From Patescibacteria group bacterium (GTDB lineage: Bacteria > Patescibacteriota > Minisyncoccia > Minisyncoccales > RBG-13-36-15): DNA of 64,000 nt. Of this stretch, positions 35,827-61,613 are shown in pieces. The position numbers were made by a program, and so were the translations under genes. The stretch lies in NCBI GenBank assembly GCA_018609195.1, contig JAHCSE010000001.1:9559-73558 (forward strand), given 5' to 3'. The notes beneath the pieces were generated by a model that saw nothing but the letters and a program-made list of their open reading frames with translations, made no database searches and had not been told where the DNA came from. Position 1 is the stretch's first letter; every line of letters starts with the position of its first letter.

Positions 35827-35837
35827 TCCGTTAATAA

Positions 35838-35867
35838 ATAATATCAGCTTGCACGAAGTAGTGTCAA
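35838..35867 (-). promoter_or_regulatory. sigma70-like promoter of the riboswitch operon
   Basis: Minus strand TTGACA-N18-TATTAT just upstream of the aptamer. Confidence 0.6.
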
Positions 35868-35915
35868 GAGAAAATCTGGGGATAACTGATTTAATTTGGA
35901 GAGATTTCTTAAAAT

Positions 35916-36494: not shown

Positions 36495-36588
36495 TTTTAA
36501 TTTTTATTGCGACCTTTTACCCCGTTAGAAATTTGTTCTTTCTACACTTTCTCCATTGTATTTGGTATTTCTAACGGGGTTTACTTTA

Positions 36589-36957: not shown

Positions 36958-37345
36958 CTACTGCATCTAATAATTTCTTGGCAGCTGTTTCATTTACTTC
37001 CTGTTTATTTTGAGAGCAAAGTTTTACTGCCTTCCAGAAAAGTTCATGAAGATTAGGAAACTTCTCGAGATGTTCTTCTTTGAAGAAATCAGACCACAAA
37101 ATCTCAAGTTCCTTTTTGCAAAGCTCTGCATGGTCTTCCTTATTTTTGATTCTTCTTGCCACGCTATTGAAATACTGCAAAAGAGAGTCTTTGTCCATAA
37201 TATCTCTTGGTAATTCCAATTCCTTCAATTGTTGAATCATCCTGGCAACGGTTTTCGCAGCAATTTTGGCAGGAGTAGGTTCATAAATTGCACAAGGAAT
37301 ATCACAATGCGCTTGAGCTATAATTTTTGGAAAAAAATTCATCAT
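36872..37345 (-). CDS. sodN: nickel superoxide dismutase precursor
   Basis: MMNFFPKIIAQA pro-peptide followed by the HCDIPCAIYEP Ni-hook. Start trimmed from the track ORF, whose extension crosses an upstream hairpin. Confidence 0.82.
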   Translation of the reverse strand: MMNFFPKIIAQAHCDIPCAIYEPTPAKIAAKTVARMIQQLKELELPRDIMDKDSLLQYFNSVARRIKNKEDHAELCKKELEILWSDFFKEEHLEKFPNLHELFWKAVKLCSQNKQEVNETAAKKLLDAVDEIAKIFYEVKNVPERFKSYKEITDKLY

Positions 37346-37498
37346 AATCTTCGATCTATTTAAAGGAAAACTGACCTCGACCTTTCCCCCCACCACTTCT
37401 GCACTCGCTTTATGATACTTGTGCCAAAGGCACAAGTAGAAAAGTGGTGGGGGGTTTATCTAAGATTTTTATCATTTTGAATAAAAAAATCAAGTTTT

Positions 37499-39499: not shown

Positions 39500-40279
39500 C
39501 TACTGAACGGTTAATTCTCCTTTCATGCCGTTTGCCCGGTGGCCAGGAACTGAGCAGAAAAAGGTATAAGTTCCGGAGGCTGAAGCAGTAAATTCAATCG
39601 TATCTGTCTTGCCAGAACCAATAGTTTTTGTTCCTACTCCTAATTCAGTAATTTTAAAATTGTGGATAATACTGCCATCGTTCCTGAAAGTTATTTTCAG
39701 TTGATCCCCAGCTGAAACAGTGATGGAAGCTGGGCTAAGACTAAATTCAGTACCACTGACGGTAATCTCTCTCACTATCGATGCTGGAGCAATACTCTTT
39801 GTAACCGTCATTGACTTTACCACAATCTTATCATCAACTTTCACTGGTACATCATCTCCTGGAAACTCATAGATGTCATCTCCATCATCAATATGGATCA
39901 TGGCAAAAAGGAAATTCTCTCCTTCTTGAAGCTCACTTACCACAACAGAAATGTTATTGTAGGTTCCAGATTCAACGAAATCAGAATTCCCAAGAACTTT
40001 CCCTGGTTTTCCATCTTCTGAAAGGTGAATCACAACATAGCCTGGGTCTTTAAAGCTTACCTCTTGGATAGTCACTTGATCTTCTGTAACCTGCTGATCC
40101 TGAACAGTAATCGCAGCCTGGGTTACTGGTGGTAGGAGTACTGTAGGTAGTGCTTCTGGTGGCTGATATCCTCCTTTCAATAGAAAATAGCCACCAATAA
40201 TAACCACCAAAATAATCACTATCACCCCTATCCACTTACACCCGCACATCTTCTCTGATTTACAAATTAGACATTTCAT
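39500..40279 (-). CDS. membrane-anchored type-1 copper (cupredoxin/plastocyanin-like) protein
   Basis: C-terminal domain with Cu ligands H (IHNF), C-x2-PGH-x4-M (FFCSVPGHRANGM). Cys-rich N-terminus plus a TM helix. Confidence 0.75.
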   Translation of the reverse strand: MKCLICKSEKMCGCKWIGVIVIILVVIIGGYFLLKGGYQPPEALPTVLLPPVTQAAITVQDQQVTEDQVTIQEVSFKDPGYVVIHLSEDGKPGKVLGNSDFVESGTYNNISVVVSELQEGENFLFAMIHIDDGDDIYEFPGDDVPVKVDDKIVVKSMTVTKSIAPASIVREITVSGTEFSLSPASITVSAGDQLKITFRNDGSIIHNFKITELGVGTKTIGSGKTDTIEFTASASGTYTFFCSVPGHRANGMKGELTVQ

Positions 40280-46304: not shown

Positions 46305-47420
46305 TTACCCAAAAGTAAATGTAAAGACCTGAAGTCCTGGTGAGTGAATTATTATTTCTAACGTGTGCCATCCGTACTCCTTCCCCGTATCTACAAGATT
46401 ATAGAGTTTTGATTCTTTGACCTTCGCGAATGACTTCCCCTCTTTAAAAAACGAGTCAGCCCCTTTGTTTTGCTCGGTAAGATATTCTCCATCGAGCTTT
46501 ACTTCAAGCGTAATCTCTGAATTTTCTCGATTTTCGAGCACTACATTTACCTTATTGGCCTTGTAGCGAAGGATGAGTTTTCCTTTCTCATCCACAAATT
46601 CTGCAAATTCAGGGTTAATACTCCAAGTGCCCACAAAATAAAAGCGGTTTCGCGCGATGCGCTCAGGTTCTACAAATGTATGTGGTTCATTCGGGCGAAC
46701 ATTTTTATCTTTATTACCAAGATTATTTATGCGCAAATACCCGAGATATATTTCCGGAGTCCCAATTTTTCGGAACTCAACACCAAGAGGTGCTTCTTTG
46801 ATTTCTGAAATTTTGTCAATCGAGAGAAATCCAGCTTCCAAAAGAAGCTGTTGAATTGCTCGTTCGGTTTCTGCATAACGGCCCTCTCCGAAATGATGGT
46901 AACGAATATTTCCATTAACGTCTATCAAATATTCAGCCGGCCAGTATTGGTTTTGAAAGGCATTCCAGGTTTTGTGATCGTTGTCCAAGGCAACGGGATA
47001 TTCCAGATTATATTTGCGAACTTCTTGTAAAACATTTTCCTTCTTTTTTTCAAAATCAAATTCCGGAGAATGAACGCTTAAAAGAACAAAGCCGCTATCT
47101 TTATATTTTCGATGCCACTCCGAAAGATGCGGAAAGGTACGGATGCAGTTAATGCAGGTGTAGGTCCAAAAATCGACCAAAACTACTTTGCCTCTTAGTT
47201 CCTCGAGGGTCAATGGCTCGGAATTAATCCAATCTTCAATACCTACCAACTCAGGTGCCTTTCTTTCAATGGGCAATTTTTGTAATTGCGGAATGGGCAT
47301 GATTCCTTTGAAAGTAATAAGACCTTTTTTATTTAGATATGAAATAGTACCCGCGATCAAAAGAAGCGCTAAAAGAAATAAAAAAATATACCTCATTGAA
47401 GTAATTTGCTTTGCAAACAA
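46305..47420 (-). CDS. membrane-anchored thioredoxin-fold protein with C-terminal beta-sandwich (DipZ C-terminal-like)
   Basis: VVLVDFWTYTCINCIRTFPHL (CxxC) redoxin domain plus about 170 aa of C-terminal domain. Confidence 0.7.
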   Translation of the reverse strand: MFAKQITSMRYIFLFLLALLLIAGTISYLNKKGLITFKGIMPIPQLQKLPIERKAPELVGIEDWINSEPLTLEELRGKVVLVDFWTYTCINCIRTFPHLSEWHRKYKDSGFVLLSVHSPEFDFEKKKENVLQEVRKYNLEYPVALDNDHKTWNAFQNQYWPAEYLIDVNGNIRYHHFGEGRYAETERAIQQLLLEAGFLSIDKISEIKEAPLGVEFRKIGTPEIYLGYLRINNLGNKDKNVRPNEPHTFVEPERIARNRFYFVGTWSINPEFAEFVDEKGKLILRYKANKVNVVLENRENSEITLEVKLDGEYLTEQNKGADSFFKEGKSFAKVKESKLYNLVDTGKEYGWHTLEIIIHSPGLQVFTFTFG

Positions 47421-47429
47421 ATGTGCTTT

Positions 47430-48185
47430 TTAGTTTTCTTGAACCCAATTAAGTTTTGCTATATGCGGAATCCACCCCTCTTTATCGACAGGCATATAGA
47501 TAGCTTCATACGTTTGCCCTGGCTTCAATCTCGGTTTTGGCTTAGGTTCATGATAATAGTAGGGCACCTCCACATCTATATCCGGAAAGCGCCACTTCTG
47601 TAAAAGTGAATAAATACCAGTTACCATTTTCTTGCCATCATTAATCAATAAAAATGATATCCAATAGGGATGCCCCTGCTCTTTTGGCCACGAAAATTCT
47701 GGTTCTTTTTGTTTTGAAATTGAGAGAACATCATTCTTTTGAATTGACGGTAGGGTATCAATTTTACCAAGAACAGTATTAGAGGCGATAATTTTCCTCC
47801 CTTTTCGAGCTCTTATTATGTAATGTGCACGGTCCTTATAATTATCGGTTACAAAGGCATAAAGGGAACCCTCAAACATTGGGAGTAATTTCGCATTAAT
47901 CTTCTTAAACGAATTGTAATTCTTGCAATCTTGATCCTTGCTTAACCTGCATTCCCATAACTCAAAATCTCTCGCTTTCACTGCTGGCCGAAATAGAATA
48001 GTGGTTGGTTCTGATTCACCCTTTTTTAACAAATCTACCTTCCCGCCGTATACACAGGCAAGAATAAATTTTGAACCAAAAAGAATCTTCGCCCGATGCG
48101 CCAAAACAGATTTATACGAAATCCATGCCGCTAACTTAATAAAAGTGCGACCTAAGATATTTTTTGTATCAAAAAGGAAAAACAT
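47430..48185 (-). CDS. hypothetical protein (251 aa)
   Basis: Intact ORF packed between the Trx-fold gene and ccdA. No family recognised. Confidence 0.5.
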   Translation of the reverse strand: MFFLFDTKNILGRTFIKLAAWISYKSVLAHRAKILFGSKFILACVYGGKVDLLKKGESEPTTILFRPAVKARDFELWECRLSKDQDCKNYNSFKKINAKLLPMFEGSLYAFVTDNYKDRAHYIIRARKGRKIIASNTVLGKIDTLPSIQKNDVLSISKQKEPEFSWPKEQGHPYWISFLLINDGKKMVTGIYSLLQKWRFPDIDVEVPYYYHEPKPKPRLKPGQTYEAIYMPVDKEGWIPHIAKLNWVQEN

Positions 48186-48202
48186 TAATACGGATCCTTC
48201 TA

Positions 48203-48979
48203 TTACAAATAATCAAGTATCCGCTCGTAGTCTATAAATTGCAAAGCTCTAAACCCCCAGGAAATTAAGAGCACCATCTTATTAGTAAGAAGCAGGATAC
48301 CAAGGAGGATAAGGAATGCGCCTCCGATAATTTCTACCCAGTGTAAATATCGAGTTATTTTTGTAATCGCAGAGGATACTGCTCCAATACCAGCGGCAAT
48401 AAGTAAAAAAGGGATAGCTAACCCCATAGAGAAAACGAAAAGGAGAAAGCCGCCCTGAAAGGCGGTAGAAGAAGTCGAAGCAAGAAAGAGAATTGCACCA
48501 AGAATTGGTCCCACACATGGTGTCCAGCCAGTGGCAAAAGCTGAACCAAGTAGAGCTGAACTCAATGGATTTCCGCGTCTGACTTGAAAAGGGAGTCTTA
48601 CCTTTCGTTCTTTGCTGAGGAATGAGGTAAGAAAAGGAATCCTGAAAATTCCTAACATAGAGAGACCGAAAAGTATGACAAATACGCCGGCAATACGCGT
48701 GAGCCAAATGCGATAAGCGCCAAAGGCTTGCCCTGCAAGACCTGCTAACGTTCCGAAGAGAACAAAAATAACCGTGACTCCCGCCATAAAAAATAGGCCG
48801 TTCAAAAAAATCTTCCTGCGGGCACTTCTTGCTTTTGTAGGATCTCTGAGTTCTTCAGCAGAGGTTCCACTGATAAAACCTAAATAAGCCGGTATAAGAG
48901 GAAGAGTGCAAGGGGCTAAGAACGTAATAATGCCGGCAATAAAAGCCGGGATAATGAGGGCAATTACTTCAGGGGTCAT
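48203..48979 (-). CDS. ccdA: cytochrome c-type biogenesis/thiol-disulfide transporter CcdA
   Basis: Canonical motifs LAPCTLPLIPAYLGF and WTPCVGPILGA; 258 aa. Confidence 0.85.
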   Translation of the reverse strand: MTPEVIALIIPAFIAGIITFLAPCTLPLIPAYLGFISGTSAEELRDPTKARSARRKIFLNGLFFMAGVTVIFVLFGTLAGLAGQAFGAYRIWLTRIAGVFVILFGLSMLGIFRIPFLTSFLSKERKVRLPFQVRRGNPLSSALLGSAFATGWTPCVGPILGAILFLASTSSTAFQGGFLLFVFSMGLAIPFLLIAAGIGAVSSAITKITRYLHWVEIIGGAFLILLGILLLTNKMVLLISWGFRALQFIDYERILDYL

Positions 48980-49506
48980 AATGCAAAAAGTTGTTGTACC
49001 TTAGATTTCATCTCATCAAAGGTCATGGGGCCCCGCTTATGGAAGAGGATATTTCCTTCTCCATCAACAAAAATTGTCTCTGGCATAGAAAATCCTCCGA
49101 TTGAGCGATAAAAAGAATCTTTGGGATCGAGGAGGAAAATAAGGGTATCTGTCACACCGAGATCATCTGTATAGCTCTTGGTTAGCTCAAGAGATTCAGC
49201 TCGGTCAATTGGAATAATGGTGATTTTATCTCCAAATTCCTGTTGGAGTTTTGCAAAATCCCCCAGTTCCTTAACGCAGAATGGACACCACACTGCCCAG
49301 GAATTTACAATAATGGATTTGCCTTGGAAATCGGAAAGAGCCACTGTGTTGCCACTATAGTCTTTCAAACTGAAATTGGGCGCTGGCTCAGGTTTTGGGG
49401 GCGTAAGAGTTTGAGTATCCTGTTTCTGACCCCCGCCCGAAACTATAAAAAAGATGATAATGGAGGCAAGAATAATAATTCCCACCACTACAAAGATTTT
49501 ATTCAT
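48976..49506 (-). CDS. TlpA/ResA-like membrane-anchored thioredoxin
   Basis: VNSWAVWCPFCVKE CxxC motif and N-terminal TM helix. Overlaps ccdA by 4 nt. Confidence 0.82.
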   Translation of the reverse strand: MNKIFVVVGIIILASIIIFFIVSGGGQKQDTQTLTPPKPEPAPNFSLKDYSGNTVALSDFQGKSIIVNSWAVWCPFCVKELGDFAKLQQEFGDKITIIPIDRAESLELTKSYTDDLGVTDTLIFLLDPKDSFYRSIGGFSMPETIFVDGEGNILFHKRGPMTFDEMKSKVQQLFAL

Positions 49507-49562
49507 AATAAATGCTAAAGCGAACCCACGGATGTATCACATTGCCGTGGGTTTGCTAAGAA

Positions 49563-49721
49563 TTATGCACATCCACCGCAGCCCCCTTTTTCTTTATGAG
49601 TATGTCCGCACTTCGAACATTTTTCCTGACGCTCCGCTCCACAGCAGGTCCCAGGGCTTTCAGTAGACTCTGAACCACAGCCGGGACAAATATGTGTTTT
49701 TTCGGTTGTTTCTTCTGCCAT
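49563..49721 (-). CDS. 8-Cys micro-protein 1 (52 aa), unannotated
   Basis: Own translation: MAEETTEKTHICPGCGSESTESPGTCCGAERQEKCSKCGHTHKEKGGCGGCA. Paralog of 51189..51338. Confidence 0.6.
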   Translation of the reverse strand: MAEETTEKTHICPGCGSESTESPGTCCGAERQEKCSKCGHTHKEKGGCGGCA

Positions 49722-49778
49722 ATTTTATATTTTTTGAAAATTTAATTTTACAATTTTTTCGACCTTTTCTTGGTTGTA

Positions 49779-50834
49779 TTATTTATACAATTCGGTATCT
49801 GGATAAGCTGCCACCCACGAAAACCAAAAAGCAGAAAAGGGATTGATGCGCTCCTCGCTGCCATCTGGCAATATCTTAAACATCCTGATCACATCAAGTT
49901 CTTTATCAGGCCGCAAGATAATAGTGGTATCTTGAAAAACATCCTCTACAGTGCCTTTTTCTTTTACTGCATCAATGTGGTATGCCTTAGCTTCTCCATT
50001 GATAACAATCCCGAATACAAAAGCATCATTAGGAAGTCGGGTATCAGTAGGTTTGGCAAGGGATAATGCCAAGTTTGTAGTTGAAAAATAATCGCCATAA
50101 GGCTTTGAGCCATAAAAGCGAAGAGCTCCCGTATCTTTGGAAAGAATTTCGCCATCAGGATGTAATTTTTTCCAGTTGCCGTAGCGCATCTGGTCTGAGG
50201 GCAATACTTTGAGTTTTGTTCCTGTCATTTCTCCTACAGCGGCTTCTCCCAAAATTTGCGGCCACAGGCTATCTGTCTTCCTATCATACATCACCAAGTT
50301 TGCCTTCCAGAGTTTTCCTGAGGTTCCAAACTCAACTCTCTCCCCTTTTACCAGAGGATCAAATATATACCCAGTGAGACAGAGAGGACAATAAGTAACA
50401 AGAACGCGTTCTCCCTCCACAATATCATTGACGATTTCATGCCAGACAGTAATCTGATAGGGATAAAAACGGTGAGTGTTTCCTCTCGAAAAAGCAATAC
50501 CTGGCTCTTCATCACTTAACCACTGATTTGCCTCTGTAATAGAAATAAACTTTGGATTATCAATAGAGGGAATGCCGTCTTTGGGCGGACCTCCACTAAT
50601 AATTTCTTCCAAAGGTATACTATGTTTAACTCCATCCGTCACCATAATTTCTTTTTCGGTTACCACAATTTCTTTTTCTCCTTCTTTGGTGATAATTTCC
50701 TCTTCTATGAGAACTTTTTCCTCTCGTGTTTCTCCTTTCGGCAGTTCAAACCTTTCTTTTCCAAATCTTTGGAAAATTAAAAAACCTACTCCTAAAAGAA
50801 TTAAAACTAAAATAGCAATATTAATAATCTTCAT
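49779..50834 (-). CDS. DUF3179 domain protein (membrane-anchored)
   Basis: GGPPKDGIPSIDNPKF motif, WHE...VTYCPLC, and an N-terminal TM helix. Confidence 0.7.
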   Translation of the reverse strand: MKIINIAILVLILLGVGFLIFQRFGKERFELPKGETREEKVLIEEEIITKEGEKEIVVTEKEIMVTDGVKHSIPLEEIISGGPPKDGIPSIDNPKFISITEANQWLSDEEPGIAFSRGNTHRFYPYQITVWHEIVNDIVEGERVLVTYCPLCLTGYIFDPLVKGERVEFGTSGKLWKANLVMYDRKTDSLWPQILGEAAVGEMTGTKLKVLPSDQMRYGNWKKLHPDGEILSKDTGALRFYGSKPYGDYFSTTNLALSLAKPTDTRLPNDAFVFGIVINGEAKAYHIDAVKEKGTVEDVFQDTTIILRPDKELDVIRMFKILPDGSEERINPFSAFWFSWVAAYPDTELYK

Positions 50835-51465: not shown

Positions 51466-51780
51466 TTATTTTAATAATCCTTTAATTTTTTCAGCAAGGG
51501 AGTAGCAAGCCATTCTCCCAATCTTCACCCTTCTTACCAAACCTGCTCTCTCAAGTAAACTCAATTGATGGGAAACAGCGCTTATACTAATATGTAAAAT
51601 TTGTGAAAAGTCAGTAGGACACAATTTTTTATAGTGTTTGAGCAAAAAAATAATTTTAAGGCGGGTGGGGTCAGAACAAAGATAATAAAAACTGCTTTTT
51701 TCTTTAATTTTTTGAGAAAGTTTTGCTAATTCTCTCTGGGAATTTTTGATTTCTCTTCCCTTAAGAAGCATTAATTGCAT
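51466..51780 (-). CDS. ArsR/SmtB-family transcriptional regulator
   Basis: 104 aa; winged HTH (DPTRLKIIFLL...ISISAVSHQLSLLERAGLV). Confidence 0.8.
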   Translation of the reverse strand: MQLMLLKGREIKNSQRELAKLSQKIKEKSSFYYLCSDPTRLKIIFLLKHYKKLCPTDFSQILHISISAVSHQLSLLERAGLVRRVKIGRMACYSLAEKIKGLLK

Positions 51781-51798
51781 ATTTGCTCAACTATTTAA

Positions 51799-51826
51799 AT
51801 ATTATCTGGATAAAAAAACTTGTCAA
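51799..51826 (-). promoter_or_regulatory. promoter of ArsR-1 with TTATC-N2-GATAA inverted repeat in the spacer
   Basis: Minus strand TTGACA-agtttttttatccaga-TAATAT. Confidence 0.5.
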
Positions 51827-51941
51827 GTGGTAGGTTGTGGAAAACTCAACCTTAAGAAATAAAAAGCCACTTTAAAACTTGGGGGTTTAAACTTTTGAAT
51901 CAACATGTTTTTGTCTTATTACTCTTTTTCCTTAAGATTAA

Positions 51942-52799
51942 CTACGGCAGAATTTGAAGTAGCCGTTCGCTTAACGTGATTACAATATTAAAGGCACCCA
52001 TAAGGATGAGGAAAAAGCCTCCTAATAACCTGATAGGTTTCATTTGCCTAACCAATGTTTGTGTCAAGGATTCTCTCGCAAATCCAGCTATAACTGAAAG
52101 TGATATCATGAGCAAAGCCATAACAGTACTTGCAAGTATAAAGACAGTTAAAGCAGAGGATAACCCGCCGCCACTCAAGGCAAAAAGAGAAAGTCCACCA
52201 ACTAAGGGAGCTACACAACCTATCCCAGCTAAAGTATATCCAAATCCAAACATAAAAAATTTACCAAACATTCCGCGGCCTCTTTTCGATATTTCAGTGC
52301 CAAGATGTTCCACTTTTCCTAAACTGACGAATACTTTATTGGTTACCAATGCCAACCCAAGTCCTATCAACAAAACACCAATGATTCGTCTAAACCATAG
52401 CAGTGCCGTTGTTCCTGGTTTAATAAAATTAATAAATGTTTCTCCCAAAAGTCCGATGACAATTCCGAAAAGAATCATAAACGCTAAAAGACCTAATGCA
52501 GCATAGAATCCATTACGAATCAGTTTTCCTCGAGAAAGTACTCGCCCTCCCCCACTCACCACCTCTGTTTGATAAACCAAATAAGATGGGAGGATCGGTA
52601 AAACACACGGATTAAAGAAAGCCGCTATCCCGACACCTAAGCCAGCGACAATAAGCGTAACCAAGGATATATCCGATGGTTTCATAAAACTTTTTGTAGC
52701 CGAAAAGAGGTAAAATCCGATAACTGCTATAACAATAAAAAACACTGCTAAGCCGATGTAAAGTAGAACAGGATGAGTTTTTGTCTGAGTATTATTCAT
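51942..52799 (-). CDS. CcdA/DsbD-like thiol-disulfide transporter paralog
   Basis: 285 aa; FFNPCVLPILPSYLVY and GIGCVAPLVGG motifs. Confidence 0.72.
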   Translation of the reverse strand: MNNTQTKTHPVLLYIGLAVFFIVIAVIGFYLFSATKSFMKPSDISLVTLIVAGLGVGIAAFFNPCVLPILPSYLVYQTEVVSGGGRVLSRGKLIRNGFYAALGLLAFMILFGIVIGLLGETFINFIKPGTTALLWFRRIIGVLLIGLGLALVTNKVFVSLGKVEHLGTEISKRGRGMFGKFFMFGFGYTLAGIGCVAPLVGGLSLFALSGGGLSSALTVFILASTVMALLMISLSVIAGFARESLTQTLVRQMKPIRLLGGFFLILMGAFNIVITLSERLLQILP

Positions 52800-52896
52800 A
52801 GGTACTATTTGAAGTTATAAGCTATTAGTTAATCATTTTAGAACTCGACCTTTGATTTCTTTTTCTTTAACTAATGCCCTCGTGGTTATAATAGGT

Positions 52897-53064
52897 TTAT
52901 TGATGCCTGTCCTGTAGGACGTGCTTATTAATTTCGAGATTGCAGCTTTTGTGTTCTCTGCACCAAGCCTCACATTTCTCTGCCCACTCTTCATCTTCAT
53001 ACTTATATCCACATTCCTCGCATTGATATAATTCTTTGTTTTCTTGTTCTATTTTCTTAACCAT
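52897..53064 (-). CDS. Cys-rich zinc-ribbon protein (55 aa), unannotated paralog of 57515..57700
   Basis: Own translation: MVKKIEQENKELYQCEECGYKYEDEEWAEKCEAWCREHKSCNLEINKHVLQDRHQ. Overlaps the upstream gene by 8 nt. Confidence 0.65.
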   Translation of the reverse strand: MVKKIEQENKELYQCEECGYKYEDEEWAEKCEAWCREHKSCNLEINKHVLQDRHQ

Positions 53065-53332
53065 TTTGGGGAGATAATTCTTTTAATTTTTCTACTAACT
53101 TATTTTTATCAAGCCCTCCAACTGCAAAAAGCTCTCCATTAACGACAATACCAGGCGAAACCATAATACCGTATTCCTGAACCATTTTCTGGCCTTGTTC
53201 AGAAAACATATCAATGTATTCAATTTCCGCATCTGGAAATTGGGGTTTAATTTCTTCTTCTAAAGTTTTCTTTGCCGTGGCACAGTGACTACACCCTGGT
53301 GTTGAAAGTTCTTGAATTTTTATCTTATTCAT
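53057..53332 (-). CDS. small thioredoxin-fold protein (redox-active disulfide protein 2-like)
   Basis: 91 aa; TPGCSHCATAKK CxxC; SPGIVVNGE. Confidence 0.75.
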   Translation of the reverse strand: MNKIKIQELSTPGCSHCATAKKTLEEEIKPQFPDAEIEYIDMFSEQGQKMVQEYGIMVSPGIVVNGELFAVGGLDKNKLVEKLKELSPQNG

Positions 53333-53882
53333 ATTCTCTTAAGGCTTGGAAAGAATTATCTAATATATTATTGACCTTATCCCAATATCCTTGACTGATA
53401 GCATCATTCAACTCCTCTTCAATAAATACTTCGAGAGAGACTCCTCGTTCTGCAAGTCCTTGAGCGAGTATGCTTAATTTGAATTCAATTTCTTGAGGAA
53501 TTTCTGTTACTTGCCCCCGAGAAGTAGTGCCGGTATATGCCTGGTCAGCAAGGATACGAGCAGAATATGCTTGAAAAATTGAAGCATCTATAATTTGTTC
53601 TTTCGTAATGCTCGTAGAATCATATATTACCCAACCAGAATCAGTTCTCGGGTCAGCATCTGCTTGCACAACTCCTGGTATGCCCAATAAGGAATTTACC
53701 ACACTTGAACGACATCCCAGACAAAACATATTGTTAATCTCCAAATCCACCTTCCGAAGGTTTGCTTGGACAACATCTCCTCCAAGAGAAGTATCCTTAC
53801 TGCTGCCACCGAATAGAAACACTCCTCCGATAATTGCCCCCACAATAATTATTGACAATGGTATGAGAAGACTCTTATTCAT
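53325..53882 (-). CDS. membrane-anchored heavy-metal-associated (HMA) domain protein
   Basis: N-terminal TM helix; NNMFCLGCRSSVVNSLLGIPGVVQADAD is an MxCxxC ferredoxin-like metal-binding domain. Confidence 0.65.
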   Translation of the reverse strand: MNKSLLIPLSIIIVGAIIGGVFLFGGSSKDTSLGGDVVQANLRKVDLEINNMFCLGCRSSVVNSLLGIPGVVQADADPRTDSGWVIYDSTSITKEQIIDASIFQAYSARILADQAYTGTTSRGQVTEIPQEIEFKLSILAQGLAERGVSLEVFIEEELNDAISQGYWDKVNNILDNSFQALREYE

Positions 53883-55386: not shown

Positions 55387-56214
55387 CTACATTCCCCATA
55401 TAAAGAATATAGCAAACATCCACATACTTGTTAAGACTAATATTCCGCCTGCGACCTTTTTCATTGTTTCTGTTTTTCCAATCATTGTTTTGAAAAACGT
55501 GTGCTTTCCCTGCCCGATAAATACGGTAACTGCAATAAGAAATAATGCTTGAGCAAGACTAAAAATCAGAAAGCTTGAAATACTGACTAAAAATTCTCCA
55601 CCCACAAGAGGGAAGAATACCAATGGTAAAAAGATGGGCAAGAAACACATCAATCCTCCAGCCCCATATACAATGCCAAAGCCAAAAAGATTAACGCTTT
55701 GTGAACGCCCACGACTCATTTTATTAACTTTATCTCTGAAGGAAGAAAGAAAATTAATATTGATAGATTTGCCACGCAAAAAAGCAATGCCGATAAACAA
55801 AATGAGAATTGCAACGGCAAATTTCAATTGGCTAGCATAGGAAGCCAGAAATGTCCCGATAGTCGCAAAAAGTAAACCAAGGACAATAAAGAAGCTGAAT
55901 ACACCGAGTGAGGCAATAATGCCAAGCTTGATACTTCTTTTAATTGGCGAGTGTTTTTCTTCTCCCTCGTCCATTCCAAGATAAAAAGACATATAAGCCG
56001 GAAGCACTCCTAAGGAACAGGGTCCAAAATTCACAATAAGCCCGGCAATGAAAGCAAAGCCCAAAATACCAAGCGTGCTAAAGGCAGCAAGATTGCTTGT
56101 CTGGGGAATAATAATCCCATACAGAACTTTCCAGCCAAAGATACTGGCAACCACAAAAATAGTAAGTGCTGCCAATATCCAAATGCTATAAGTTACTATT
56201 TTTGACTTAATCAT
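55387..56214 (-). CDS. CcdA/DsbD-like thiol-disulfide transporter paralog
   Basis: NFGPCSLGVLPAYMSFY motif. Start set at MIKSKIV (4 nt after the stop of the upstream gene) rather than the track's 56286. Confidence 0.68.
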   Translation of the reverse strand: MIKSKIVTYSIWILAALTIFVVASIFGWKVLYGIIIPQTSNLAAFSTLGILGFAFIAGLIVNFGPCSLGVLPAYMSFYLGMDEGEEKHSPIKRSIKLGIIASLGVFSFFIVLGLLFATIGTFLASYASQLKFAVAILILFIGIAFLRGKSININFLSSFRDKVNKMSRGRSQSVNLFGFGIVYGAGGLMCFLPIFLPLVFFPLVGGEFLVSISSFLIFSLAQALFLIAVTVFIGQGKHTFFKTMIGKTETMKKVAGGILVLTSMWMFAIFFIWGM

Positions 56215-56218
56215 AAAA

Positions 56219-57076
56219 TTAAGGAAAAAGAATTTTTGTAAATGGAGTGATGAAAACAGAAGAAAGAATAAGGAAAATTCCGACAATAAGAAGTAGAACG
56301 CCGCTTACTCTTTTGATAGCAACGGTTGATTGGCGAAGACTTTGGAGTAAAGTTTCTTTGGAAAAAGCAATGAGCAGTGATACAACAATCATCAGAAGTG
56401 CCATTACTAATGAATAAACCACAAAAGCCAGAAACGCATCTGAGAAGCCACCTTGAGATAGTGCAAATACAATGAGCCCACCCATGATTGGGCCTCCACA
56501 ACCGATACCAAGTAGTGGATAGCCAAAACCATAGCCATAGAGTTTTCCAAATCCCGCTTGTTTTTCTTCCGGCAATGATTTCGGATGCCATAAATGCCCT
56601 AATCTCCCAAAAGGATTCCCTCTCCCTGTGGCGTGGCTAAAACCAAGATACAGAAGAAACACTCCTACAATGCCACGCAGCCATCTTACTGGTATGCTTG
56701 GGTTTTCTCCTGCAAGCCCTAATGATTTCCCAAAACCAGCTCCTAAAATACCAATGCCAATACCGAGTAAAAGATTAAAGGTGATAAGACCTAATGCTGC
56801 TGCTAATCCAGAGAGGAGTAGTTTCGTTGCTGACTTTTTACTTTCACCTTCTTTTGTTGTGTAGTATTGAGCAAAGTAGGCAGGAAGCAATGGAAAAGCA
56901 CAAGGGTTAAAGAAACTTGCCACTCCTGCAACTACCGCAACAAATAGTAACCCAAAAGCAGCACCTCCCTTCATTATGTTGATAACAAACCAGATAAATA
57001 ACCCATACCCGCCTGCTACCAAAACAAAAATAATAAAAAAAAGAAAAATGAGCTTGCTCCAATCTTTTAACGACAT
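56219..57076 (-). CDS. CcdA/DsbD-like thiol-disulfide transporter paralog
   Basis: 285 aa; FFNPCAFPLLPAYFAQY and GIGCGGPIMGG. Overlaps ArsR-2. Confidence 0.72.
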   Translation of the reverse strand: MSLKDWSKLIFLFFIIFVLVAGGYGLFIWFVINIMKGGAAFGLLFVAVVAGVASFFNPCAFPLLPAYFAQYYTTKEGESKKSATKLLLSGLAAALGLITFNLLLGIGIGILGAGFGKSLGLAGENPSIPVRWLRGIVGVFLLYLGFSHATGRGNPFGRLGHLWHPKSLPEEKQAGFGKLYGYGFGYPLLGIGCGGPIMGGLIVFALSQGGFSDAFLAFVVYSLVMALLMIVVSLLIAFSKETLLQSLRQSTVAIKRVSGVLLLIVGIFLILSSVFITPFTKILFP

Positions 57077-57369
57077 AGCTTTTTGCAGAATTTGTTAATA
57101 TGCTTATCCATTAACCCAAGAAGCGGCTTTGTTGTTTCTTTGTTTAGAGTATAAATGCGTTCTTTTCCATTTCTTTCCATGCTTACAAAACCACATTTTT
57201 GAAGCCGTCCTAAGTGATGCGAGACAAGACTTTGCTCATAGCCAAGTTTCTTGGCAATAGCAGTTACATTTAGCTTTCCTTTTCGAAGCAAATGGATAAT
57301 ATCCCACCTTGTTTTATTCCCCAGGGTTTCAAAAAAGATTTTATATGGTTCGCGAATAATTCTCTTCAT
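57067..57369 (-). CDS. ArsR/SmtB-family transcriptional regulator
   Basis: 100 aa; LGNKTRWDIIHLL...QSLVSHHLGRLQKCGFV winged HTH. Confidence 0.82.
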   Translation of the reverse strand: MKRIIREPYKIFFETLGNKTRWDIIHLLRKGKLNVTAIAKKLGYEQSLVSHHLGRLQKCGFVSMERNGKERIYTLNKETTKPLLGLMDKHINKFCKKLCR

Positions 57370-57376
57370 AGTATGA

Positions 57377-57404
57377 ATTATATTTCATATGAAACTTATG
57401 TCAA
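57377..57404 (-). promoter_or_regulatory. consensus promoter of ArsR-2 with palindromic operator; transcript probably leaderless
   Basis: Minus strand TTGACA-taagTTTCATATGAAA-TATAAT. The 12-bp perfect palindrome fills the spacer, and the -10 box ends only 7 nt before the ATG. Confidence 0.65.
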
Positions 57405-57457: not shown

Positions 57458-57476
57458 AACCGCCTTCTCGACGATT
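57458..57476 (-). terminator. family terminator, copy e (variant)
   Basis: aaccgccttctcgacgatt. Downstream of 57515..57700. Confidence 0.5.
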
Positions 57477-57514: not shown

Positions 57515-57700
57515 TTAGCTCTCTGACTTCTCAAGGAAAGCAGGTTCTTTCACAGCGTGCTCGGTAATCTCAAGGTTACAGCTTTTGTGTTCCAAGCACC
57601 AAGCCTCGCATTTCTCTGCCCACTCTTTTTCTCTATAAGTAAAACCGCACTCTCTGCACTGGTAATACGTTTTATTGTTTTGAGTAATAACTTTTGGCAT
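57515..57700 (-). CDS. Cys-rich zinc-ribbon protein (61 aa)
   Basis: YYQCRECGFTYREKEWAEKCEAWCLEHKSCNLEI. Paralog of 52897..53064. Confidence 0.65.
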   Translation of the reverse strand: MPKVITQNNKTYYQCRECGFTYREKEWAEKCEAWCLEHKSCNLEITEHAVKEPAFLEKSES

Positions 57701-57729
57701 AAATCACTTATATAAAAAGCAAAAGTAAA

Positions 57730-58107
57730 TTATTCATTACTTCTTCTCCAAAATCTAAAATTTTCTGGCCAGGCACTAATCGCTAAAGCCAAGGCTGCAG
57801 TAAATAATCCAATATCGCGAACTGTAATTGTATTAATACCAGAGACTGTAAGAACGGTGACTAAGTGCAAAGCTCCAAGAAGTGCTGCTAACCAAGTGAA
57901 GTAATCTATTAAAAGCAAAGCACCAATAATAATATCAAAAAGGGCTGTTCCAATCATTACTCCTTTTAAGGAGATTGGTAAAAGATTAGCTGCCCAGGGT
58001 TGCACGTAGCCTCCCCACCCTACTGGGTCCCGTAAAATGAGAATGCCAATCCACAAGAAAGTAATGGCCATTCCCACTCGTAATATGTGAAATGCACTTG
58101 ATTTCAT
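57730..58107 (-). CDS. DoxX-like 4-TM membrane protein
   Basis: 125 aa; ILRVGMAITFLWIGILIL N-terminus and four hydrophobic helices. Confidence 0.5.
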   Translation of the reverse strand: MKSSAFHILRVGMAITFLWIGILILRDPVGWGGYVQPWAANLLPISLKGVMIGTALFDIIIGALLLIDYFTWLAALLGALHLVTVLTVSGINTITVRDIGLFTAALALAISAWPENFRFWRRSNE

Positions 58108-58175
58108 AAATAATACTAGATTTTAAAGAATATGAACTTTATCTTCGATAAAGACCGTATAATTTTCGTTTCGCT

Positions 58176-58589
58176 TCAAATTATAAGCTCGCTAATTAAT
58201 ACAATAAGTCCCATAGCAAAAACGGTAAAGGCAGACAGTACACACCAAAAACACCAAGCTTTGATAACCCGCCATTGAAGATAGGTCAAAATGATTGATA
58301 TAACTACTCCAGCTCCAATAAGAATCTTTACCAACATATCCCAAAAGATCAGTGGTTCAACCCCAATTATCAAAAAAGCAGTGAAAAGGGAAATTAAAAC
58401 ATAAAATGTAAATCCCAAAACTTCATTATGAATACCAATAATTTTATTGTACTTACTTCCCAAGACTTCATAGCACTCCTCGCCGAAAATACAGACAGGT
58501 TCCTCTTTTGCTATTCTTTTACGAATTAAATAAACTGTCTCTGAAATACCTATGGCGGCGAGTGTGAAAAGAAGGGCATGTGGAGTCAT
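58176..58589 (-). CDS. vitamin K epoxide reductase (VKOR) family protein
   Basis: 137 aa; loop Cys pair (PVCIFGEEC) and a TM CxxC (AWCFWCV). Confidence 0.68.
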   Translation of the reverse strand: MTPHALLFTLAAIGISETVYLIRKRIAKEEPVCIFGEECYEVLGSKYNKIIGIHNEVLGFTFYVLISLFTAFLIIGVEPLIFWDMLVKILIGAGVVISIILTYLQWRVIKAWCFWCVLSAFTVFAMGLIVLISELII

Positions 58590-58594
58590 GGTTG

Positions 58595-58810
58595 TTATTT
58601 TCGCTCTTGATCACGGTGGATGAGCGTCCCTACACCAAAGGCAATGGAAACAAGTAATAATGTTATTGCGTCATTGTAAAAATCTCCTTGAGACAATCCA
58701 AGAAAAGTGCCATACGTTCTCACAATCCAAGCGCCAAAGAGCGATAATATGCCTAAAATTCCAGAAATCATGGCAACGTGGTGTAAAATTGGTGACCATT
58801 TCATATTCAT
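58595..58810 (-). CDS. small two-TM membrane protein (71 aa)
   Basis: ORF between the SPFH and VKOR genes with two hydrophobic helices. Confidence 0.45.
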   Translation of the reverse strand: MNMKWSPILHHVAMISGILGILSLFGAWIVRTYGTFLGLSQGDFYNDAITLLLVSIAFGVGTLIHRDQERK

Positions 58811-58837
58811 AGAATGTATCTAATAAATTTACGTTTA

Positions 58838-58895
58838 GGCCTGCCTGCCCCGTAGGGAAGCGAAGCTTCTCCTTCGGGGCTTAATCTTACAGGCC
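58838..58895 (-). terminator. nested GC hairpin after the SPFH gene
   Basis: GGCCTG..CCCCG..GGAAGC-GAA-GCTTCTCC..CGGGG..CAGGCC. Contains the GCGAAGC mini-hairpin motif. Confidence 0.5.
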
Positions 58896-58917
58896 ATTTA
58901 TTGTTCAATAGGGTCTC

Positions 58918-59703
58918 CTATTTTTCATTTCCCTCGTTCTTGTTCTCTTCTGGTAATTTTTTGCCAAATCTTTCAAAGGCTCTAAGAATTTCCAAAGGCA
59001 CAGCAAAAATAATCGTATTTGATTTATCAGAGCTTATATCATTGATTGATTGAAGAGTTCTTAAATGAAGGGCTCCCTTAGCCTCAGATAGAGTCCGGGC
59101 AGCTTTTGCCAGATTACCGGAGGCAATTACTTCTCCTGCGGCCTTAATAATTATTGCTCTTTTTTCCCTTTCTGCTTCAGCTTGCTTTCCAATTACCCTC
59201 TTCATTCCTTCTGGTAAAGTTATATCTTTTAATTCCACATTGAGAACTTTAATTCCCCAAGGATCGGTAGCCTTATCTATAATGCTTCTTATGTTTTCTG
59301 AAACCCTGTCTCTTTGAGAAAGGAGGCCATCTAAATCTACTTGACCTACGGCATTTCGCATTGTTGTTTGGGCTAACTGAGAAATGGCAAAGAAAAAATC
59401 CTCTACTTCCAAAACTGCCTTATCAGCTTCTTGGACTTTATAATAGATAACAGCATTAACCCTAACTGAGATATTATCCTTGGTAATTGCCTCCTGATCT
59501 GGTACATCTACCGCCTTTACTCTTAAATCTATTTTTCGATAAAACTGAACAATAGGCAAAACTATTCTCCAGCCAGGTTCCATCAAACCGATATACTTAC
59601 CCAGCATAAACTTAACTCCCTTTTGATACTGATTAATCTGCTTAATGGAGGTTAAAATAATCAAGACAATTATTGCTAAAATTACCCAACCTATATTTGG
59701 CAT
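58918..59703 (-). CDS. SPFH/band-7 (stomatin/slipin-like) protein
   Basis: 261 aa; N-terminal TM helix, KDNISVRVNAVIYYKV, and an EAEREKRAII coiled region. Confidence 0.85.
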   Translation of the reverse strand: MPNIGWVILAIIVLIILTSIKQINQYQKGVKFMLGKYIGLMEPGWRIVLPIVQFYRKIDLRVKAVDVPDQEAITKDNISVRVNAVIYYKVQEADKAVLEVEDFFFAISQLAQTTMRNAVGQVDLDGLLSQRDRVSENIRSIIDKATDPWGIKVLNVELKDITLPEGMKRVIGKQAEAEREKRAIIIKAAGEVIASGNLAKAARTLSEAKGALHLRTLQSINDISSDKSNTIIFAVPLEILRAFERFGKKLPEENKNEGNEK

Positions 59704-59723
59704 ATTTTTTTGAAGTTAATTAA

Positions 59724-60359
59724 TTATTCGACCTTTAAGGAACCCAGCATTCCATTGGCGCGGTGACCAGGGATAGCACAATAATACTCAAAGGTACCTA
59801 GCTTATCGGGTATGAAAGAGACAGTTTTCGATCCAGTACCATAGTAACCACCAGATAGTGAGTAGTTAACTCCTAGTTCATCGATAGTAAAAGTATGGGT
59901 GCCAGAGATGGAAAAGTTAATCTTAAGTTCTTGTCCTTTTTGAACCGTTGCTGAATTTGGAATAAACGCAAAGTTGCGTGCCGTCATTGAAATCTCTTTA
60001 GTTGGAAGTGGCTCAGGAGTAGGTTCAGGTTCAGGGGTTGGCTCAGGCTCTGGAGTAGGTTCTTGCATAGGTTCAGGTTCAGACTCTGGTTCTGGGGTTG
60101 GTTCGGGTGTAATCATCTGTTCTTCTGTCAGTGCTGGAGCGATTGCCTCTTCTTCATCTGGGAGAGACACCTCCTCGGGTGGACTAGGAATTTGTTCTCC
60201 TGGGGCGACTTTTTCTGGTGCTAGAGGCCCGGTTGGAGTTGGAGTTGGGGCTTGATAACCTCCTTTTAAAATAAAATATCCACCCACAATGACTGCAAAC
60301 GCCACCGCTGCAATAATAATACCCCACGTTACTTTATCCATATATTCCCTACCTTTCAA
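59724..60359 (-). CDS. membrane-anchored cupredoxin with Pro/Glu/Thr-rich linker
   Basis: C-terminal domain with GTHTF...YYCAIPGHRANGM type-1 Cu ligands. The true start may be MDKVTW (ATG ending at 60341). Confidence 0.75.
   Translation of the reverse strand: MKGREYMDKVTWGIIIAAVAFAVIVGGYFILKGGYQAPTPTPTGPLAPEKVAPGEQIPSPPEEVSLPDEEEAIAPALTEEQMITPEPTPEPESEPEPMQEPTPEPEPTPEPEPTPEPLPTKEISMTARNFAFIPNSATVQKGQELKINFSISGTHTFTIDELGVNYSLSGGYYGTGSKTVSFIPDKLGTFEYYCAIPGHRANGMLGSLKVE
60007..60108 (-). repeat. coding tandem repeat (PEPTPEPEP linker)
   Basis: ggttcaggt/ggctcaggc-type 6- to 9-nt periodicity encoding (T/E)PEP repeats. Confidence 0.7.
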
Positions 60360-60891
60360 TAAATTCTTTTATTTTATCTTCATCAAAACCATCTAAAATT
60401 TCTCTTTTGTTAAGCTTGGTTAAGATAATTTTCCCATCATAATTATTGGGAGCTAAATAAACATTGTCTGGGTATTGTTTTACTAAAGCTGTGATCTTTT
60501 CTATTAAACCTAATTTACACTTAAACTTATCACAGTTGTATTGAATGATAACTCCTGGTTTGCCTCTGCCATCGGCATGCTCTAACATGTGTTTTTGGAT
60601 GACTTCTGGTATAGGTTGCGAAAGAATGTGAGCTGGGGGTATTGCTTCTGAATGATTAAGGAGTGTCGTTGGAGGTAAATCAGGACTGCTGGTTAAAAAC
60701 CATCCTAAACCAAAAATTCCTCCTCCTATCACCAAGACAATTAAGCTTAAATTTAGTGTCTTTTTAAATCGCAGTCTCCGTCTTCCCCCCTCTTGTTCTT
60801 TTTGTCTAAGTTTTCTTTTGAGAAGTCGACGCTCTTTTTTTGTCAGTTGTTGATCCTCAACGAGAACCTTGTTTTTCTCTAATTCCTCCAT
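60349..60891 (-). CDS. membrane-anchored DUF3105-like protein
   Basis: 180 aa; basic N-terminus plus a TM helix; HMLEHADGRGKPGVIIQYNCDKFKC core. Family assignment is tentative. Confidence 0.4.
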   Translation of the reverse strand: MEELEKNKVLVEDQQLTKKERRLLKRKLRQKEQEGGRRRLRFKKTLNLSLIVLVIGGGIFGLGWFLTSSPDLPPTTLLNHSEAIPPAHILSQPIPEVIQKHMLEHADGRGKPGVIIQYNCDKFKCKLGLIEKITALVKQYPDNVYLAPNNYDGKIILTKLNKREILDGFDEDKIKEFIER

Positions 60892-60917
60892 TTTCCTTTA
60901 AGTAAAACCGGATCCTT

Positions 60918-61613
60918 TTATTTCAGATCAGCCAATGCCTGATCTACTGCGGCCTTGAAGGTTGAGTAAGGAACTGCTCCAGGAATGGATCGCCCATTTA
61001 CAAAACTTCCCGGAGTCCCTCTTACTCCTGTCTTTATCCCCTCTTGATAATCAGCGGCTACCTTATCTTTGTATTTTCTGGAAGAAAAACAACTATTAAA
61101 CTGATCTATATTAAGCCCGAGATTTCCTGCTAATTCTTGATAAAGTGCTTTTCCCAATCTGGATTGATTTTCAAATGCGCCATCTACAAACTGCCAAAAT
61201 CCATCATTTCCCGTTTGTTCCCAGACGCACTCGGATGCTTCAGCTGCAGGGGTTGCCTGAGGATGAATTTGGTCTAAAGGAAAGTGCTTGTACACCCAAC
61301 GGACTTGACCGGAATACTCTGCCAAAATCTGCTTCAGAGTGGGATGAAGTCTATCGCAAAATGGACACTCAAGATCAGAATATTCAACAATAGTTACGGG
61401 GGCCTCAAAATCTCCTCGGATATGATCTTTCTCGGAAATAGTAAGCGTTCCTCCTGGACTTCCTTTTTGAGACTCTGTTTGAGAAATATCAGCCTGCGAT
61501 TTTTGAGTTAATCCAGTGGATTGTTGAGGGCTTTTTGTATAAATCAAAGCTCCAACAATCAGTAAAGCACCTACAATTATTGAGACTGGTAAATATAATT
61601 TTTCTCCTCTCAT
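60918..61613 (-). CDS. DsbA-family thiol:disulfide oxidoreductase
   Basis: YSDLECPFCDRLHP CxxC, GTPGSFVNG cis-Pro loop, N-terminal TM helix. Confidence 0.82.
   Translation of the reverse strand: MRGEKLYLPVSIIVGALLIVGALIYTKSPQQSTGLTQKSQADISQTESQKGSPGGTLTISEKDHIRGDFEAPVTIVEYSDLECPFCDRLHPTLKQILAEYSGQVRWVYKHFPLDQIHPQATPAAEASECVWEQTGNDGFWQFVDGAFENQSRLGKALYQELAGNLGLNIDQFNSCFSSRKYKDKVAADYQEGIKTGVRGTPGSFVNGRSIPGAVPYSTFKAAVDQALADLK

Follow-up and report, generated by a model that had tools for sequence, protein, structure and literature searches.

The 64,000-nucleotide stretch analysed here (the window, to which all coordinates refer; GenBank assembly GCA_018609195.1, contig JAHCSE010000001.1) stems from a Patescibacteria group bacterium of the Candidate Phyla Radiation (CPR) and carries, at positions 57515-61613, a string of genes for envelope thiol-redox and copper proteins. 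Our analysis showed that this string is a composite of three neighbouring modules, which form part of a more extensive genomic island of envelope thiol-redox and copper genes. Its conserved core is a cassette of three genes encoding a VKOR, a DoxX-type membrane protein and a membrane-anchored copper protein, and this cassette is found across CPR bacteria. About 110 related loci, numbered with the prefix L, were compared.

A preliminary description had listed nine genes running from DsbA at 60918 to the zinc-ribbon gene at 57515. The two ends and the shared strand agree with the open reading frames (ORFs) of the window; the number does not, as the ORF list contains eight minus-strand ORFs between 57515 and 61613, and a gene call made independently on an identical 7.9-kb contig likewise returned eight. 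The genes are indeed closely spaced, with intergenic gaps of 5-107 nt and one overlap. From the upstream to the downstream end, they are:

60918-61613, minus strand: DsbA/MdbA-like membrane-anchored thiol-disulfide oxidoreductase, CPFC (Thioredoxin_4 4.6e-30, 105 bits; DSBA 8.6e-20, 72 bits)
60349-60891, minus strand: DUF3105-like protein of 180 amino acids (aa) with an N-terminal transmembrane (TM) anchor (DUF3105, PF11303, E=0.017, 15.6 bits against a cut-off of 25)
59724-60359, minus strand: membrane-anchored type-1 cupredoxin, CupA (Cupredoxin_1 28.8 bits, cut-off 27; Copper-bind 23.7 bits, cut-off 21.2)
58918-59703, minus strand: SPFH/Band-7 (stomatin-like) protein (Band_7 8e-35)
58595-58810, minus strand: 71-aa protein with two TM segments (2-TM protein), no family match
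58176-58589, minus strand: VKOR with four TM segments, without a fused thioredoxin domain (PF07884 1.9e-21, 77 bits against a cut-off of 27.5)
57730-58107, minus strand: DoxX-family protein of 125 aa with four TM segments (DoxX, PF07681, 22.2 bits against a cut-off of 23.6)
57515-57700, minus strand: Cys4 zinc-ribbon protein of 61 aa

The labels DsbA, VKOR, SPFH and cupredoxin given in the preliminary description are borne out by Pfam or NCBIfam matches above the curated cut-offs. Those of the DoxX and DUF3105-like proteins hold at the level of the family, while the window proteins themselves fall short of the cut-offs, the DoxX-like protein by 1.4 bits. Among the orthologues of the latter, 22 of 24 match DoxX at E <=0.01, some of them above the cut-off (L010 with 31.9 bits). 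Similarly, 29 of the 32 DUF3105-like homologues match DUF3105 at E <=0.1 (best 1.7e-5), and one bears a precomputed PF11303 label; judged from these family-wide Pfam matches, the DUF3105-like proteins appear to be a divergent branch of DUF3105.

A VKOR-DoxX-cupredoxin cassette is conserved across CPR bacteria

Two sets of loci were compiled, one of 22 genome loci found through VKOR (tblastn, with clustering of the neighbour proteins) and one of 80 metagenome loci, of which 61 are distinct at 95% identity, collected independently with the DoxX-like protein as the anchor (alignment A1). VKOR was followed by the DoxX-like gene in 18 of the 22 genome loci, and the recurring neighbour clusters of this set were VKOR (18), the DoxX-like protein (18) and cupredoxin-containing proteins (14), the next commonest cluster occurring only four times. 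In the metagenome set, VKOR was located immediately upstream of the DoxX-like gene and on the same strand in 44 of 52 evaluable loci, a cupredoxin gene adjoined in 33 of 39, and all three genes occurred together in 22 of 33. The distance between the VKOR stop and the DoxX-like start has a median of 2 nt and is <=20 nt in 64 of 75 loci, and 11 loci display an ATGA-type 4-nt overlap; the median gap from the DoxX-like gene to the cupredoxin gene is 24 nt. Precomputed Pfam labels on additional long contigs again showed VKOR followed by DoxX, and the genes flanking the cassette on further long contigs differ between loci (DnaB, EF-P, pilus genes, tRNA synthetases). On contigs from one genome per species, the VKOR relatives belong essentially all to metagenome-assembled genomes of Patescibacteria/CPR, including Magasanik-, Peregrini-, Jorgensen-, Nealson- and Parcubacteria, a few being auto-binned under other labels. 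A canonical DoxX gene precedes VKOR in four loci (L010, L015, L018, L019), and in L015 and L018 no DoxX-like gene is present downstream.

The functional tie of DoxX and/or the cupredoxin to VKOR that had been suggested for the window thus receives strong backing from a tight synteny conserved across many CPR lineages. Gene order, named earlier as a check on the string, is kept for VKOR, DoxX and cupredoxin; the SPFH gene is not conserved with VKOR, and the zinc-ribbon gene goes with an ArsR/CcdA-like module. The eight genes as one unit, as first described, are not jointly conserved. L002 and L003, the closest relatives, are the only loci in which VKOR has DsbA, the DUF3105-like gene and the 2-TM gene in its company.

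Some further features of the cassette loci were observed. In L002, the closest relative, a 30-residue DoxX-like remnant with 73% identity to residues 2-31 follows VKOR (L002 10421-10510), and it looks as if the DoxX-like gene has been lost or pseudogenised there. A gene for an XRE-type helix-turn-helix protein of 65-75 aa ends 9 nt before VKOR in nine loci among L057-L091, some of them near-identical; ArsR genes flank the cassette in other loci, and MsrB precedes VKOR in L032 and L063.

VKOR and the DoxX-like protein

The window VKOR aligns to residues 22-149 of the Synechococcus VKOR (4nv6) with corresponding Cys pairs, that is, the loop cysteines C33 and C39, accompanied by S45, and the CXXC motif C113-F-W-C116 of the last core helix. 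C33, C39, S45 and C113-x-x-C116 are invariant in 65 cassette VKORs and, going by these residues, the cassette VKOR is catalytically complete. Accordingly, the view that VKOR and DsbA of the string are a bona fide oxidative-folding pair was upheld. A further VKOR paralogue of divergent sequence is encoded no more than a few kb from the cassette in some genomes (L050 4246-4704; L084 4020-5117), and the cassette VKOR is therefore regarded as a subfamily of its own. The second VKOR of L084 comprises 365 aa with a long multi-TM C-terminal extension.

The DoxX-like protein is unusually conserved, with about 60-85% identity across CPR, and has the invariant residues R10, W31, P37-W38, H81 and R97-D98 (alignment A1). 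Hydropathy and the positive-inside rule place its two most conserved motifs in outside loops, which would thus face the same side of the membrane as the VKOR active site and the cupredoxin domain. With the DoxX-like protein as query, the PDB yielded no meaningful sequence match. A full HMMER profile search of 1.84 billion representatives returned 759 relatives, 19 of them below 1e-30. Among these, the DoxX-like domain is fused to an N-terminal CBS pair (three clusters), to DsbD_TM or to two cytochrome b5 domains (fused representatives P0407, P0413, P0419, P0496 and P0510), and in other long matches to NUDIX; the DsbD_TM fusion, P0496, has 880 aa and a large His-rich extracellular region, and the fusion to two cytochrome b5 domains has 554 aa. 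DoxA or DoxD was not matched in the string or its neighbours, the partners of the DoxX-like protein being VKOR and the cupredoxin.

Two types of cupredoxin accompany the cassette

The window cupredoxin has the copper ligands H155, C194, H199 and M204, the columns of H155, C194 and H199 being invariant in alignment A4 and M204 being present. Its true start is likely M7, at position 60341, as in the gene call (205 aa). The linker is rich in Pro, Glu and Thr and of low complexity with EPTPEPEP repeats, and on the opposite strand it yields a spurious Gly/Ser-rich ORF of 93 aa (59974-60255). The full type-1 ligand set (H/C/H/M) that characterises CupA was found in the window and in L002, L003, L011, L013, L017, L101 and L108.

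Most related loci encode a variant, CupB. An AlphaFold model of CupB matches amicyanin and plastocyanin (Foldseek E 1e-8), and the protein thus has a cupredoxin fold. In the hhalign comparison with CupA (98% probability), both His ligands are kept, the four-residue stretch bearing the Cys is deleted and the Met is replaced by Phe, so that the Cys ligand in the C-terminal loop which defines type-1 sites is missing. Additional invariant residues of CupB are H116, H130 and H164 together with a Cys pair, C131/C142, in an inserted loop.

The window encodes another membrane-anchored cupredoxin of type 1 at 39500-40279, which carries DUF7282 at its N terminus and gives a weak CopI-like match. L002 likewise has a second cupredoxin of similar kind (about 19275-20138).

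The DUF3105-like protein, CupA, the 2-TM protein and SPFH belong to a separate module

The extracytoplasmic domain of the DUF3105-like protein has a thioredoxin fold with C120-x4-C125 at the position of the CXXC motif. This Cys pair is invariant, as are, among other residues, H80, H88, H101 and H105; a search for structure matches with the DUF3105-like profile returned nothing meaningful. In at least five protein clusters the DUF3105-like domain is fused to a type-1 (blue-copper) cupredoxin, and L109 displays the order NfeD-SPFH-DUF3105-like-cupredoxin-2TM without VKOR. Owing to the fusions and to the L109 arrangement, we assign the DUF3105-like protein, CupA, the 2-TM protein and, in some cases, SPFH to a separate module (module A). 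By analogy with Sco, we propose that the DUF3105-like protein may assemble the blue-copper cupredoxin or exchange electrons with it.

The 2-TM protein had been regarded as a small partner of SPFH. It gave no match to NfeD beside the window SPFH, while a true NfeD precedes SPFH in L109, and its homologues follow the cupredoxin in L002, which has no SPFH there, and in L109. The 2-TM protein is hence not of the NfeD type and tracks the DUF3105-like/cupredoxin module. A partnership with VKOR, with whose start the 2-TM gene overlaps in L002, was also considered and rejected in view of the L109 homologue, which follows the cupredoxin without a VKOR. SPFH is missing from the VKOR loci except L017, where it is encoded on the opposite strand 2 kb away.

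A rhodanese-domain gene is located immediately before the DUF3105-like gene in L110 (4510-5001) and L111 (4519-4968). L111 also carries CFA-synthase, zinc-ribbon, HMA and P-type ATPase genes, a set that echoes the island of the window.

DsbA, the zinc-ribbon module and the surrounding island

DsbA, which has a CPFC motif, a 'GTP' loop and an N-terminal hydrophobic segment, adjoins the cassette only in the closest relatives L002 and L003 (2 of about 100 loci); it is a generic oxidase and a lineage-specific neighbour of the cassette. At the other end of the string, the zinc-ribbon gene is followed by a unit headed by an ArsR regulator, and a second zinc-ribbon/ArsR/CcdA-like copy lies within the window at 51466-53882 (minus strand):

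57458-57476 (57476-57458), minus strand: terminator-like hairpin 3' of the zinc-ribbon gene, weakly indicated by a pattern scan
57377-57404 (57404-57377), minus strand: sigma-70-type promoter TTGACA-16-TATAAT before ArsR, 12/12 consensus, pattern scan
57067-57369, minus strand: ArsR/SmtB-family regulator heading the downstream unit (HTH_5 1.8e-12; NF033788 3.3e-21)
56219-57076 and 55387-56286, minus strand: two tandem CcdA/DsbD_TM-like membrane proteins (weak DsbD_TM, 1.4e-3 and 1e-5)
53325-53882, minus strand: HMA-domain protein
53057-53332, minus strand: Thioredoxin_3 protein with CSHC
52897-53064, minus strand: zinc-ribbon paralogue
51942-52799, minus strand: CcdA-like protein, third paralogue
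51466-51780, minus strand: ArsR

The promoter before ArsR is the sole perfect match in 9.5 kb. The overall counts of promoter and terminator sites in the region equal the expectation from shuffled sequence, so that only this single 12/12 promoter is noteworthy. With the hairpin after the zinc-ribbon gene and the promoter before ArsR, the downstream boundary of the string is a reasonable end of a transcription unit. The zinc-ribbon paralogue sits between the Thioredoxin_3 gene and the CcdA-like gene with ArsR. As it is embedded among HMA, Thioredoxin_3, CcdA-like and ArsR genes, we assign the zinc-ribbon gene to the downstream ArsR/CcdA-like unit (module C), and its product most likely belongs with that module, not with VKOR. 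Zinc-ribbon homologues occur at variable positions near cassettes (L016, L035/L037, L039, L053, L111), and ArsR genes lie beside cassettes in L002, L035/L037, L043 and L089.

Further genes of the window point to a reductive envelope thiol pathway beside the oxidative one (46305-50834) and to exposure to O2:

49779-50834: DUF3179 protein
48976-49506: TlpA-like redoxin
48203-48979: canonical CcdA
46305-47420: ResA/Thioredoxin_10 protein, followed by a 251-aa protein without an assigned family
36872-37435: nickel superoxide dismutase (Ni-SOD)
35916-36494: peroxiredoxin

The island, which extends over 46-63 kb, thus also holds two TlpA/ResA-like redoxins, and in addition CutA. A DsbD_TM-family membrane protein of 349 aa is encoded on the plus strand at 22846-23895, bringing the CcdA/DsbD_TM-like genes to at least five in 64 kb. 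The presence of Ni-SOD and peroxiredoxin (region 35713-37435) is consistent with exposure to O2. A block comprising DUF4430, a B12-type ribonucleotide reductase (31250-33553) and a corrinoid adenosyltransferase is preceded by an AdoCbl-II riboswitch (35713-35827).

A possible electron outlet for VKOR

We tentatively propose that the cassette (module B) acts as an extracytoplasmic electron relay that sustains disulfide formation in a cell without a respiratory chain, a quite possible reading. Most Patescibacteria are devoid of respiratory chains and O2 reductases (PMC7507113; PMC11665869). In such a relay, DsbA or another thioredoxin-fold oxidase would be re-oxidised by the loop cysteines and the CXXC motif of VKOR, which would in turn reduce a bound, probably scavenged quinone. 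The DoxX-like protein would bind or present the quinol, the copper centre of the cupredoxin would oxidise it, and the electrons would be handed to an external acceptor such as O2. Module A would provide a cupredoxin and its Sco-like assembly or redox partner, and in the lineage of the window this cupredoxin would serve as the copper protein of module B; module C would be a unit for thiol export and regulation with a promoter of its own. A dedicated electron outlet for VKOR fits the data because the coupling of VKOR to DoxX is tight, the DoxX family is tied to the quinone-reducing DoxD, a subunit of the thiosulfate:quinone oxidoreductase (TQO; PMC5413113), and the copper protein is predicted to lie on the same membrane face. 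The fusions of DoxX relatives to redox modules, namely two cytochrome b5 domains or DsbD_TM, also speak for it. We infer from this arrangement that the proteins associate physically, that a quinone takes part, and in which direction and to which end-point the electrons would flow. Among about 50 window ORFs scanned, which come from less than a tenth of the 750-kb contig, no quinone-pathway family was matched. In some Patescibacteria, a 2025 study left the link between quinol and a single-domain cupredoxin unidentified (PMC12931201). It might be speculated further, as a rather doubtful extension, that VKOR, the DoxX-like protein and the cupredoxin constitute a self-contained three-component disulfide-generating oxidase that would pass electrons from thiols via copper to O2 or a host-derived acceptor, with a single captive quinone or none.

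Several observations weigh against the relay. The DoxX-like protein has neither cysteines nor an obvious cofactor motif, and its redox role is thus conjecture. CupB lacks a Cys ligand of the electron-transfer type and would suit a type-2 catalytic role, or one in binding copper, no less well. No fusion of VKOR to DoxX or of DoxX to a cupredoxin was present among the best 150 representatives of the HMMER search, and both a complex of the cassette proteins and electron transfer among them are predictions. In 8 of 52 loci the DoxX-like gene, in six of them with CupB, has no adjoining VKOR, and L104 has VKOR and the DoxX-like gene without a cupredoxin. In the window itself, the cupredoxin gene lies 1.1 kb from VKOR with two genes in between, and the gap of 68 nt between VKOR and the DoxX-like gene is looser than usual. 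Finally, DoxX is also part of a copper/gold-induced GIG operon unrelated to VKOR (PMC5413113).

Another explanation is that the region is an island for copper stress and copper handling in which VKOR passes no electrons to the cupredoxin. Cupredoxin-fold proteins would bind or sequester copper or oxidise Cu(I), the DUF3105-like, HMA and CutA proteins would handle copper, DsbA/VKOR and CcdA/TlpA would repair copper-damaged thiols as in the Scs or CutA-DsbD systems, and the DoxX-like protein would act as in the GIG operons. The window is rich in thiol-redox and metal genes, as it clusters CutA1, an HMA-domain protein, two type-1 cupredoxins (the second being the one with the weak CopI match), three CcdA-like genes and a canonical CcdA, two TlpA/ResA-like redoxins and two ArsR/SmtB regulators, and L111 groups the DUF3105-like gene with HMA and P-type ATPase genes. 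Together with the non-blue site of CupB, which combines five invariant His with the missing Cys ligand, and with DoxX in copper-induced operons, this gene content keeps a role in copper homeostasis alive. However, such an island leaves unexplained why, across CPR, it is specifically VKOR, and a paralogue dedicated to the cassette, that stands next to the DoxX-like gene at a median gap of 2 nt; the other copper and thiol genes are not found near most cassette loci, and type-1 cupredoxins with the full H/C/H/M set are electron carriers, not sequestering proteins. We consider this explanation rather unlikely.

It is also conceivable that the cupredoxin is a client, such that the cassette VKOR would form the disulfides of CupB (C131/C142) and of the DUF3105-like protein (C120/C125), with the DoxX-like protein as an accessory membrane subunit and the copper proteins functioning elsewhere. 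Both Cys pairs are invariant, VKOR of L013 and L108 has a small thioredoxin gene as its direct upstream neighbour, and a second, generic VKOR exists in some genomes. This idea is weakened by the type-1 cupredoxins occupying the same slot (window, L003, L011, L013, L101, L108), which have a single ligand Cys only and hence no disulfide to form; moreover, an oxidase dedicated to one small client would be unusual, and no role is offered for the highly conserved, Cys-free DoxX-like protein. We regard it as distinctly unlikely. Least probable, and indeed improbable, appears the original reading of all eight genes from DsbA to the zinc-ribbon gene as one oxidative protein-folding operon in which every member participates. 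The eight genes are co-directional with short gaps, a terminator-like site follows the zinc-ribbon gene with a strong promoter before the next gene, and L002 keeps DsbA, a DUF3105-like::cupredoxin fusion, the 2-TM gene and VKOR in the same order. Beyond L002 and L003, however, the set breaks up: SPFH is absent or elsewhere in relatives, L109 groups the 2-TM, SPFH and DUF3105-like genes but has no VKOR among them, the zinc-ribbon gene is duplicated with a different module, and DsbA is next to the cassette in only those two of about 100 loci. The shared strand is uninformative, as nearly all genes of the 64-kb window lie on the minus strand.

Relation to known systems

The cassette resembles the disulfide-forming DsbA/MdbA-VKOR pathway of Actinobacteria and Cyanobacteria, known as Rv2969c/Rv2968c of M. 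tuberculosis, MdbA/VKOR of Actinomyces oris and the VKOR-Trx of Synechococcus, in that VKOR has the loop Cys pair, the conserved Ser and the membrane CXXC, and in that the string encodes a membrane-anchored CPFC DsbA-like oxidase, the thiol-to-quinone chemistry being presumably the same. Unlike in these pathways, the cassette VKOR is a separate subfamily which nearly always stands before a DoxX-family gene and beside a cupredoxin, DsbA usually does not adjoin, and the host phylum generally has no respiratory chain for the re-oxidation of quinol.

With DoxDA of the Acidianus TQO the cassette shares the pairing of a small DoxX-family membrane protein and a redox partner outside the cytoplasm, as well as the association of the family with quinone. 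It differs in that DoxA is absent, its place as partner being taken by a cupredoxin with VKOR encoded upstream, and in that the direction proposed here is quinol oxidation instead of quinone reduction; the window protein, moreover, scores 1.4 bits under the DoxX cut-off. Other DoxX-family membrane subunits are MhqP and that of the M. tuberculosis DoxX-SseA-SodA complex. The proposed task, transfer from a membrane quinol to a soluble or anchored copper carrier, would be that of the quinol:cupredoxin/cytochrome oxidoreductases bc1/b6f and Alternative Complex III. The similarity would be functional only, as the cassette has no haem, Rieske or iron-sulphur motifs and the DoxX-like protein is a Cys-free protein of 125 aa.

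The DUF3105-like protein recalls Sco1/SenC, the copper chaperones of the CuA cupredoxin domain in cytochrome oxidase, as a membrane-anchored, extracytoplasmic thioredoxin-fold protein with a Cys pair at the CXXC position, conserved His and a cupredoxin domain as genetic partner. In contrast to these, the motif is C-x4-C, not CxxxC, the conserved His lies upstream, not downstream, the partner is a type-1 blue-copper protein, sometimes fused, and copper binding is only putative. By its motif the protein is not a member of the Sco family, its sequence family being DUF3105-like, and the resemblance is functional only. CupB compares with natural non-blue cupredoxins and the EfeO Cup domain in its cupredoxin fold with both His ligands and no Cys ligand, and differs from them in a loop shorter by four residues and in the extra invariant H116, H130, H164 and Cys pair. 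Engineered Cys-to-Asp azurins, with type-2 or 'type-zero' copper, are comparable in that the Cys ligand is missing.

An enrichment of DsbA-like proteins and the adjacency of DsbA and VKOR (88/750 genomes) have already been reported for CPR (Méheust et al. 2019; PMC6744442). In the literature we searched, coverage of which is incomplete, we found no paper that names both VKOR and DoxX and no description of a VKOR-DoxX-cupredoxin cassette in CPR; 'DUF3105' appeared in one unrelated paper, and a paper on Saccharibacteria genetics mentions neither VKOR, DoxX nor disulfides. The linkage of DsbA and VKOR in CPR was thus known, and what appears to be new is a VKOR disulfide pathway with conserved new partners.

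The formation of disulfide bonds needs an electron sink which, to our knowledge, is the respiratory quinone pool in known bacteria. DsbA-like proteins and VKOR abound in CPR bacteria, where their task is thought to lie with the pili and surface proteins used for attachment to the host, yet these bacteria mostly have no respiratory chains and O2 reductases. The cassette, a dedicated VKOR paralogue before a DoxX-family and a copper protein in many CPR classes, is a concrete candidate for their electron sink. It would give the large and functionally obscure DoxX family a defined set of partners, and it directs attention to a cupredoxin variant that is naturally non-blue and to DUF3105 in the role of a thioredoxin-fold protein. 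If the three-component oxidase exists, it would supply the last step that oxidative protein folding has been missing in CPR bacteria without respiration. In that case, the DoxX-like protein would be a minimal subunit that couples quinol to cupredoxin without a cofactor, and possibly the quinol-plastocyanin-like link noted in denitrifying Patescibacteria.

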